64,000 nt of DNA from Squalus acanthias (lineage: Eukaryota), in the NCBI GenBank assembly GCA_030390025.1, contig CM059448.1, positions 11,966,001 to 12,030,000 on the forward strand, written 5' to 3'. Shown here piece by piece: positions 25,058 to 27,245 of this stretch. The position numbers were made by a program, and so were the translations under genes. The notes under the pieces were generated by a model. The model worked only from the letters and a program-made list of their open reading frames with translations, was not told the DNA's origin and did no database searches. The first letter of the stretch is position 1; each line of letters starts with the position of its first letter.

Positions 25058-27245
25058 CATAGAGTCATACAGCCCATCAAGTCCGCGCCGGCTCTCTGTA
25101 GAGCAATCCAGTCAGTCCCATTGCCCCGCTCTATCCCCGTAGCCCTGCAAGTTTATTTCCCTCAAGTGCCTATCCAGTCTCCCCTTGAAAGCATTGAGTG
25201 TCTCCGCTTCCACCACTTCTGTCGACAGCGAATTCCAGGTCCTCACCACTCGCTGCGTAAAAAAGTTTTTCCTCACATCTCCCCTGTATCTCTTGCCCAA
25301 AACCTTAAATCTGTGTCCCCTAGTCCTTGTACCATCAACTAGTGGGAACAGCCTTCCCCCGTCTAGCCTATCCAAACCCGTCATAATCTTGTACACCTCT
25401 ATCAAATCATCCCTCAACCTCCTTTGCTCTAATGAAAACAAATCCAGCTTCTCCAACCTGTCCTTGTAGCTAGGATCCCCCCCATCCCCGAACCATTCTG
25501 GTAAATCTCCTCTGCACCCTCTCAAGGGACTTCACATCCTTCCCAAAGTGTGGTGACCAGAACTGGTCGCAACACTCCAGCGGCAGCCCAACCAGCGCTC
25601 CACAAAGGCTCAGCACAACCTCTCTACCCCTGCACTCAACACCTCCACCCACGAAGCCCAAGATCCCACACGCTCCGCCAACCACTCTCCCAACACGTCC
25701 CGCCACCCTCGGGGACCCACACACACCAACTCCCAGGTCCCTGCGTCCCCGCACACGCCCCAAAACCGTGCCACCAAGTGCACACCGCCTCTCCCCGTTC
25801 CCCCCGCCAAAATGCATCACCTCACACCCCCCTGCACCAAACTCCATCAGCCACCCGTCTGCCCACTCCGCCAGCCCCTCCACGCCCCGCTGCAGTCAAC
25901 TGACATCATCCTCACTGTTTACCACACCCCCAAGCTTGGCGCCATCGGCAAAGTCAGAAATTCCACTCTGCACCCCAACATCCAGGCCATCCACATACAC
26001 CAAAAAAAGCAATGGCCCCAGCACTGACCCCCCGGGGAACACCACCGTCCCCCAGTTCGAAAAACAGCCATTTACCACAACTCGCTGCCCTCCCTCCCCA
26101 AGCCAATTCCCCACTCAAGCTGCCACTGATCAACCCACTCCACAAGCCCCAACCCTGCCAACCAGCCTTCCACGCGGTACCTCGCCAAACACCCTCCGAA
26201 AATCCACGCAGACAACATCCACCGCACTCCTCCCACCAGTCCCCTCTGCCACCCCATCAAAAAACGCAACTAAATCAGCCAAACATGATCCGCTCTCCAC
26301 AAATCCACGCCGGCCCTCCCCAATCAGCCCAAATCTCTCCAAGCGCCCGTCAACCCCTTCCCTGGCCATTGCCTCCAAAACCCCACCCACCACCGATGCC
26401 AAACCAACCGGCCCGCAGTCACCAGGACCACCCCCCCCCCCGAACAACGGTGCCACACCCCAATCCTCGGGCACTTCCCCCGCATCTAGGGAAGATTGGA
26501 AAATTATGGCAAACCCTTCCGCTATCTCCTCCCCTAATTCCCTTAGCAACTTGGGATGCAAGCCATCTGGACCAGGCGACTTGTCCACTCTAAGCATACC
26601 CAGCCTTTCTAGTAGATCCTGTCTATCAATTTTCACCCCTTCCATTGCTTCTACCTTTTCCATTTCTACCGATATTTTGTCAGCATCCACCTCCTTAGTA
26701 AACACCGATACAAAGTACTCATTGAGTATTCTGGCCTTGCCCTGCGCCTCTAAGCATATATCACCTTCTTTGTCCCTAATAGGCCCCACCCCGCCTCTTA
26801 CTATTTACATGCCGGTAGATGATTTTTGGGTTCCCTTTTATGTTAACCGCCATTCTACTCTCCTATTCTCTCTTTGCCAACATTATTTTCATCTTTACTT
26901 CCCCTCTCAACTTATTGTATTTGGTCTGGTTCTCCCTTGAAGAATTCACCTGACATGCATCATACACCCTCTTTTTTTTTGTTTCATCATCCTCTCTATC
27001 TCCCTCGTCATCCAAGGAGCCCTTGCTTTGGTTCCCCTTACCCTTCCCTCTTGTTGGAATGTACCTAGTCTGTACTTGGAACATCTCCTCCTTAACGATC
27101 ACCCAGTGTTCCGTTACAGTTTTTCCTGTCGGTCTTTGGTTCCATTTTACCCTGGCTAGATCCTTTCGCATCCCATTGAAGTTGGCCCTGTTCCAGTTTA
27201 GAAGTTCCACTCTAGAATGCTCCAAAATCCTTTTCCACTTTTGCT
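25058..27245 (-). mobile_element. CR1 (HER1-like) LINE, 5'-truncated ORF2, with A-to-G hypermutated block ~25480-26460
   Basis: Minus-strand ORFs give CR1 ORF2 motifs (LNEYFVSVFTKE, DKSPGPDGLHPKLLREL, LERVQRRFTRM, KNFFTQRVVRTWNSL) and a CR1 3' tail; the central RT region is abnormally Gly/Arg/Val-rich. Confidence 0.95.

Follow-up and report, generated by a model that had tools for sequence, protein, structure and literature searches.

The window analysed here, a 64,000-nucleotide (nt) stretch of the Squalus acanthias genome (contig CM059448.1, positions 11,966,001 to 12,030,000), contains on its minus strand a 5'-truncated, CR1-type long interspersed nuclear element (LINE). This copy occupies positions 25057..27223 and consists of the 3' 2.16 kb of the second open reading frame (ORF2), a short 3' untranslated region (UTR), and a tail. 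Within it lies an 887-nt tract (25573..26459, minus strand) in which 174 of 277 A sites on the LINE sense strand read G, and it is the origin of this tract that is considered below. Members of the CR1 clade have a short 3' UTR, end in a microsatellite tail without poly(A), and are frequently truncated at the 5' end. In the window copy, the remnant of the tail (25057..25069, minus strand) is a repeat of the ATGACTCT type, tails of this type are present in all five copies inspected, and the 5' ends of the copies vary. The element is presumed to be a CR1 from a preliminary description of the window and from the CR1 motifs LEYCVQFWSP and NYRPVSLTS. No clear target-site duplication was seen in five copies; in the window copy, the longest word shared by the two ends is 6 nt and is out of register.

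A search of the same genome with the unedited flank of the copy as query gave 29 reference paralogs, 93-96% identical to the window copy in that flank. Most of them align with it over its full length, and the window copy belongs to an abundant young subfamily. One unedited 25-mer has 7,285 exact matches genome-wide and is exact in 56 of 110 collected loci; thus, about 14,000 copies of the subfamily are estimated to cover the core site. The open reading frame pieces of one paralog (L011) match PF14529/PF03372 (Exo_endo_phos) and then PF00078 (RVT_1), the order of an apurinic/apyrimidinic (APE)-type endonuclease followed by a reverse transcriptase. In a tree of 1,264 masked columns, an old subfamily is split off with a support of 1.0, and the young subfamily is star-like, with the edited copies ungrouped. 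When 143 of the 167 stop-free frames of at least 75 codons in the window were scanned against profiles for a host gene, the only matches were two to RVT_1.

With the column majority of the 29 paralogs as the reference state at each site, the changes in the tract are nearly all of one type: A>G at 174 of 282 A sites (174 of 277 in the comparison with the flanks), compared with G>A at 6/249, T>C at 3/219, C>T at 11/118, and 8 transversions. The 5' part of the copy (26460..27223, minus strand) is unedited (A>G 3/261), as are the 3'-terminal ~510 nt (25057..25572, minus strand; A>G 3/133), which hold the C-terminal ~130 codons of ORF2 and the 3' UTR. Together the flanks have 6 A>G changes in 394 sites (core versus flanks, Fisher p=6e-78; core A>G versus T>C, p=4e-54). 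Compared with each single paralog that spans the whole core, the tract has ~170-190 A>G and 7-12 G>A changes. The preliminary description had reported a largely one-directional A>G excess, and the table of substitutions against the 29 paralogs confirms a strong excess over G>A, T>C, and C>T; its hand counts on the plus strand, 33 T in 26161-26400 with 23 of these in TC, are exact. It had also proposed other CR1 elements of the window as references. These are only 60-76% identical to the subfamily and were dropped, but the conclusion holds with true paralogs.

Maximum likelihood places the borders of the tract at 26459 and 25573; a single edit, at 25544, lies outside them. Sharp borders and unedited flanks had been described before, and this is correct for the border near 26460; the other border, however, had been placed at 25480, about 90 nt too far out, since 25480-25572 is essentially unedited. 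Because sites favourable for editing are scarce just 3' of 25573, the real end of a duplex could lie anywhere in ~25500-25580. Deletions of 9 nt (~26450) and 6 nt (~26441) adjoin the 5' border.

The edits alter the encoded protein, including the catalytic motif of the reverse transcriptase, which an A>G edit has changed from FADD to FADG (25941..25952, minus strand; ISDFADGAKLGG in the window, ISEFADDTKLGG in the unedited paralog L113). The peptide changes listed earlier are all present when checked against L113: the window has GVAPLFGGGGGPGDCGPVGLASVVGG, DVVCVDFRRVFGEVPR, VGRVVGGACGIL, and DFADGAKLG, and L113 has NVTPLFKKG...NYRPVSLTSVVGK, DVVYMDFRKVFDKVPH, and FADDTKLG. A>G changes are unable to create stop codons; thus, the damage that editing does to the LINE protein is missense. 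The RVT_1 match is lost in the three edited sense-strand frames that were scanned, and consequently edited copies may be under-annotated.

The neighbours of the edited sites point to the type of enzyme. Scored on ancestral (paralog-majority) bases, editing in the window tract depends strongly on the 5' neighbour, being 50/55 (0.91) after U, 67/88 (0.76) after A, 35/58 (0.60) after C, and 21/75 (0.28) after G; the avoidance of a 5' G noted previously is thus also found with ancestral neighbours. In a pool of seven copies (the window copy and six others, introduced below, of which C11 contributes only the 25589-25718 part), 921 of 1992 A sites are edited, compared with 45 G>A, 19 T>C, and 59 C>T changes. 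The pooled frequencies are.77,.63,.37, and.16 after a 5' U, A, C, and G, respectively, and.51 (p=0.02),.49,.43, and.42 (p=0.008) before a 3' G, A, C, and U. The order U>A>C>G is found in the window copy, C8, C17, C10, C5, and C9, and the short scored part of C11 gives U>A>G>C. According to the available text of Eggington et al. (PMC3113232), human ADAR1 acting promiscuously on long double-stranded RNA (dsRNA) has the same 5' order, U>A>C>G, with a weaker 3' preference of G>C~A>U, and ADAR2 shares the 5' order; the pooled copies hint at a similar weak 3' effect, with G highest and U lowest, but the window copy alone does not show it. The editing in that work was seen in RNA, whereas here it is seen in genomic DNA, as single fixed molecules. 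Since inosine is invisible in DNA, the enzyme has to be read from the trace that it left; very probably, as part of the pathway of dsRNA, reverse transcription, and insertion proposed below, it was an ADAR. Exons that match A_deamin (PF02137), which may come from ADAR1, ADAR2, ADAR3, ADAD, or ADAT1 genes, are present at six places in the genome.

Misincorporation by the reverse transcriptase or during second-strand synthesis under unbalanced deoxynucleoside triphosphate pools would also give a one-stranded burst of one type, and the weakness of the 3' preference could fit this or a deaminase other than ADAR, such as a TadA/ADAT-type enzyme. Such an origin is nevertheless very unlikely, given that the order U>A>C>G in six of seven copies matches that of ADAR1 and ADAR2 and that hundreds of unedited A's flank the tract in the same complementary DNA (cDNA). 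Furthermore, the pyrimidine preference of TadA-type enzymes would rank a 5' C above a 5' A, the opposite of what is observed. There is also no sign of APOBEC-type G>A change, either in the core (6/249) or as a G>A tract in the collected loci, where the best excess of G>A in 150 nt is 7, compared with 26-38 for A>G in the edited copies.

The window copy is not alone. Six further A>G copies were found in the genome, C8, C17, and C10 with the edited core as query, C5 with the tract of C10, and C9 and C11 with a degenerate sense motif; all seven copies, including that of the window, are edited on the sense strand. The degenerate sense motif has 6 matches, a motif from the 3' part finds only C11, and a sense motif from the 5' flank finds only C17. 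Queries with the 5' tract of C17, the 3' tract of C17, and the tract of C5 gave no new edited copy among the 16, 12, and 12 matches fetched of ~40, and no A>G, T>C, or G>A tract is present in 100 other collected copies. As a lower bound, about 1 copy in 2,000 (~0.05%) is edited. The process has recurred over time, since C17 is a member of an older subfamily; its edited stretch starts at the truncated 5' end and extends for 2.0 kb. In C8, only 23 of 157 sites are edited in 25946-26437, where the other copies are heavily edited. The edited tract of C10 contains a 33-bp minisatellite of 59 units with 99% matches (L063:5126-7076, G000:C10); its unit carries A>G edits, so the repeat grew after editing. 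C5 and C9 are each interrupted by an opposite-strand copy from a different CR1-like family (L133:5325-6877 and L132:3798-4433), ~60-62% identical to the subfamily.

Sharp borders within an otherwise ordinary copy could also arise if the change occurred in place, after insertion, either because RNA from the locus was edited and then returned to the DNA through RNA-templated repair or gene conversion, or because DNA was deaminated in an R-loop; indeed, ADARs are able to edit DNA in RNA:DNA hybrids. However, seven of seven copies are edited on the sense strand, and an antisense mirror motif, a single motif of low sensitivity, has 0 matches genome-wide. In addition, no close inverted partner lies near any edited copy examined, which argues against editing at the insertion sites, and the copies that share borders and a haplotype (see below) sit on five different contigs. 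Change in place is accordingly regarded as highly improbable.

Taken alone, the odd composition of the tract might suggest an assembly or base-calling artefact, GC-biased conversion, or simply a GC-rich subfamily. Biased conversion is contradicted by the background levels of T>C, A>C, and T>G in the core, and a GC-rich subfamily by the 100 other collected copies, which are unedited, and by the seven edited copies, which differ from one another at many A sites. The question of an artefact can be addressed with four public sequencing runs, X1, X5, X16, and X17, all examined as assembled contigs; the low-share runs X6-X15 do not enter the comparison. In run X1 (organism A), contigs cover 25535-25934 (1 other letter and a 17-nt gap) and 26058-26499 (5 other letters), and the depth of 7.7-9.9 in these contigs, compared with 7.7 in unique flank, is that of a single-copy sequence. 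Run X17 is from organism H, another species, with a flank that is ~5% diverged; it has a 589-nt contig for 25910-26499 with 31 other letters. Unedited paralogs are only ~75-76% identical to the edited core, and thus this contig carries most of the edits. In the same run, the unique flank continues into the 3' end of the element (394 nt with 21 other letters and 5 gaps). The presence of the tract in the contigs of two organisms speaks against an artefact of the assembly. Single contigs of runs X5 and X16 share C8-type differences from the window at 25623, 25628, and 25636 (within 25623-25649), and C8 or its ortholog may also be present in these runs.

The age of the edits is recorded in the decay of CpGs. 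An edit that follows a C creates a new CpG, and in 25573-26459 editing has raised the CpG count from 10 to 42. In the pooled copies, C>T has occurred at 25 of 144 new CpGs but at only 5 of 252 unedited CA sites (p=5.5e-8), with 17 of 68 for original CpGs; in C17 alone, the values are 11/40 and 1/72. Because the CpGs created by editing have decayed, their G's must have been present for a long time in methylated germline DNA, and base-calling error is excluded as their cause. Overall, an artefact, biased conversion, or a GC-rich subfamily can be given practically no credence.

The tracts resemble one another in position as well as in type. Six of the seven end 473-531 nt before the end of the element (25531-25589), leaving the last ~500 nt unedited; the 3' border is at 25564-25589 in five young copies (the window copy, C8, C10, C5, and C9) and the 5' border at 26437-26543 in four young copies. 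The five young copies with the shared border all have the haplotype GGT (5/5, compared with 8/69 unedited copies; the three sites were chosen after inspection of the data), and permutation gives p=0.004 for 7 sites in the tract and 3' region and 0.03 for all 12. Stratified by 5' base, the edit patterns have odds ratios of 2.1-12.3 within the five and of 0-1.7 in comparison with C17 or C11. C5 and C9 share 6 rare alleles (window positions 26436, 26368, 25864, 25797, 25550, and 25141), and pairs of unedited copies (2,775 pairs) share at most 3. The edits are correlated, yet many are private to each copy and the patterns are not nested, since all 16 patterns possible among four copies occur. Five sites of favourable context (26168, 26107, 25990, 25918, and 25625) have escaped editing in most of these copies. 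A single edited ancestor that was repeatedly re-copied is not supported, for this reason and also because C8 is sparsely edited in 25946-26437 and the flanks are not duplicated. Instead, the five young copies could stem from a single source locus or lineage whose RNAs, each edited on its own, folded back on a fixed inverted partner over ~25570-26540, an idea to which about even odds are assigned; one such fold-back source would explain the shared borders.

A different account leaves ADAR in place and contests only the derivation of each copy from a single molecule. Here the copies would be chimeras, made when the reverse transcriptase switched between a normal and a hyper-edited CR1 RNA at one border or at both, in particular at the 5' border, and the sharp borders would mark template switches instead of the ends of a duplex. 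Within 20 nt of the 5' border, the window copy has the two deletions already mentioned (9 nt and 6 nt), and C9 has one of 9 nt at 26546; yet each of these two copies has 4-5 comparable deletions away from the border, and at the border itself C8 and C5 show no deletion. C5 and C9 have 5 derived alleles in common in 903 sites of the tract and 3' region and 0 in 462 sites of the 5' flank, as though the flank came from another template, and the 5' flanks of the edited copies in general are no closer than random; the expectation for C5 and C9, however, is only ~2.6 shared flank alleles, so that 0 is not significant. The tract and flanks also appear to be equally old, given that the divergence at non-A, non-CpG sites is 0.027 and 0.035, respectively, in the window copy, with similar values for 4 others. 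The shared haplotype and the private alleles of C5 and C9 extend across the 3' border, which makes a template switch there unlikely. For the 5' border, a switch is considered less likely than not, though by no means remote.

Donors that could fold back on themselves are possible in this subfamily, because a head-to-head inverted pair exists at L137:2821-6812 (G000:C1), in which a long copy and a 790-nt 5'-truncated copy, 91% identical, lie ~1 kb apart. Both members are unedited in DNA, and the pair is a candidate for a present-day ADAR substrate. It was rejected as the donor of C11 because of a haplotype mismatch. No long internal inverted repeat was found in a paralog. The site evidence led to the rejection of three features that might have set the borders, an antisense exon, a poly(A) site, and a TATA box: the TATAAA palindrome at 25599-25606 falls inside the tract, there is no antisense AATAAA, and there is no donor GT at the borders in 26527-26543. 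One further copy of this CR1-type element (L097:699-2718) has its 5' part inverted, with the equivalent of 27052-26420 reversed beside 26403-25066, and resembles a twin-priming product of L1. A limit for twin priming of 590 bp from the 3' end, considered in this context, was dropped; the available text of PMC5668948 gives this value for the 5' end.

Some features of the window are by-products of the edits or lie apart from them. A 488-codon stop-free frame runs opposite to the LINE strand (25474-26937, plus strand) without a Pfam match. In the unedited majority sequence, the best frame opposite the LINE strand has 4 stops in this region, and the long frame is probably a by-product of the removal of stops by T>C change. 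Two G-quadruplex-type motifs arise in the edited 25573-26459, where the unedited sequence has none. Elsewhere in the window there are two GC-rich islands, 55401-55800 and 17901-18100 (64-73% G+C), whose scanned frames have no Pfam match.

The series of events that best accounts for the tract would begin with the pairing of a CR1 sense transcript with antisense CR1 sequence over ~0.9-1 kb. ADAR would then deaminate ~60% of the adenosines within the paired stretch, and the CR1 reverse transcriptase would copy the edited RNA from its 3' end by target-primed reverse transcription, reading inosine as G. The edited cDNA would finally insert in a germ cell and become fixed. The DNA directly shows the one-stranded tract, its neighbour bias, its presence in real DNA, its age, and the six further copies. 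From the DNA we infer the enzyme, the RNA duplex, and target-primed reverse transcription; that a hyper-edited CR1 RNA was reverse-transcribed and fixed in the germline is given a probability of roughly 0.9. The preliminary description had arrived at a partly double-stranded, ADAR-edited, and reverse-transcribed CR1 RNA, and this proposal is supported by the strong A>G excess, the depletion of edits after G, the presence of the tract in contigs of public sequencing runs, the unedited state of 100 other collected copies, and the differences among the seven edited ones.

Various observations do not sit well with this reading or with a single source. In the window copy alone, the 3' neighbour has no influence (editing is 0.62-0.64 whichever base follows), and there is little CpG decay (4/36 versus 1/25). 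The DNA queries favour sense-edited copies, and the antisense test is the one low-sensitivity motif. Among the sequencing runs, X1, whose sequence differs from the window, may be the assembly's own sample; the kind of library in X17 is unrecorded; X16 (organism G) covers both junctions, yet its listed contigs include no long one over the core; and X5 (organism A) has neither long core contig among those listed. No contig in the four runs contains both flank and tract, so orthology in organism H can only be inferred. Neither a duplex partner nor a source locus came to light: there is no inverted copy of >76% identity within the window and 20 kb on each side, and no close inverted copy in the 5-15 kb around the other edited copies. 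C11 is edited through its tail (60/133 further A sites), and therefore the 3' border is not obligatory and a fixed border is ruled out. C17, of the older subfamily, ends at 25531, near the shared border, which one donor leaves unexplained. The relatedness of the five copies is also less clear than the haplotype, with its sites chosen afterwards, would suggest. In 44 columns they differ at 63 of 424 cells (0.15; null mean 0.185), and in the 5' flank they are no closer than random (24/105; permutation p=0.89, 5 sites). Moreover, part of the correlation of edits reflects wider sequence context, common to C17.

Deaminase footprints in retroelements are themselves known; the one described here was very probably made at the RNA level, by ADAR. 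APOBEC "DNA editing" footprints are fixed in vertebrate genomes in long terminal repeat (LTR) retrotransposons and endogenous retroviruses, as described in the available part of Knisbacher & Levanon (PMC4866542). As here, an intermediate of the retroelement is hypermutated by a host deaminase, yet the copy still integrates and is inherited, leaving a strand-specific, motif-biased cluster. In those cases, however, the change is G>A through C-to-U deamination on the cDNA of LTR elements, whereas the CR1 tract, in a non-LTR element, shows A>G, and the position of this change on the sense strand together with the neighbour bias of ADAR places the editing on RNA. That screen, in the text available, selected for G-to-A and against A-to-G alignments. 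ADAR-linked A-to-G hyperediting was reported for the avian retroviruses RAV-1 (Felder 1994) and ALV (Hajjar & Linial 1995), and HTLV-2/STLV-3 (Ko 2012), as cited in the part of PMC8586724 at hand, and in these retroviruses, too, edited RNA was reverse-transcribed and inosines appear as G in DNA. As presented there, these cases are exogenous, those of HTLV-2/STLV-3 are limited to culture and do not extend to in vivo infection, and none is a LINE or is germline-fixed or shared between host species. ADAR1 and ADAR2 restrict human L1 independently of editing, and in cell culture >2.5 kb of ectopic L1 RNA gave no sign of editing, according to the accessible portions of PMC5224506 and PMC8535693. 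Thus, in human L1 ADAR also acts on a non-LTR element, but reportedly without editing, whereas here the editing of a retrotransposing RNA is recorded. The role of ADAR editing in Alu evolution, or in Alu suppression by mutation, is called undetermined in the relevant part of a 2016 review (PMC4982230), and A-to-G clusters were enriched in RNA traces, not in DNA traces, in what is available of PMC2873906. Full-text literature searches, which covered few subscription journals, gave no account of A>G hyper-edited LINE copies fixed in a germline; an earlier account may nevertheless exist.

The preliminary description went on to suggest ADAR-based inactivation of LINEs. This step goes further than the data show: FADD has become FADG, but the copy is 5'-truncated anyway, only ~0.05% of the family is edited, and such RNAs did retrotranspose. 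RNAs destroyed by editing leave no trace and the edited class is rare, and therefore no claim of restriction can be based on these copies. In the best reading, they are rare escapers that document, as a by-product, the action of ADAR on retrotransposon dsRNA in the germline, and they do not prove restriction; with only ~1 copy in 2,000 edited, the effect on the family looks small, a record and not a demonstrated defence. The copies are sequence evidence for an encounter of ADAR with LINE RNA in germ cells in which the RNA is edited but remains able to retrotranspose. This is a route by which RNA edits enter heritable DNA in bulk, ~180 changes at once. The chances are roughly equal for and against a broader view, in which the genomes of vertebrates hold a readable fossil record of germline ADAR, accumulated at a low, steady rate (two subfamilies here, and one insertion that would predate the divergence of species ~5% apart) and with one source that had at least five daughters. 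In this view, the terminal ~500 nt are perhaps protected, as a rule, within the retrotransposition particle. How often, on which strand, between which borders, and how long ago ADAR touched each repeat family and lineage can be read from a three-letter scan of such families. If the reading is true, such copies would be the RNA-level counterpart of APOBEC footprints, missed by screens directed at G>A, and the ends of ancient duplexes and the site profile of the enzyme would be readable from daughter copies much as from old sequencing reads.
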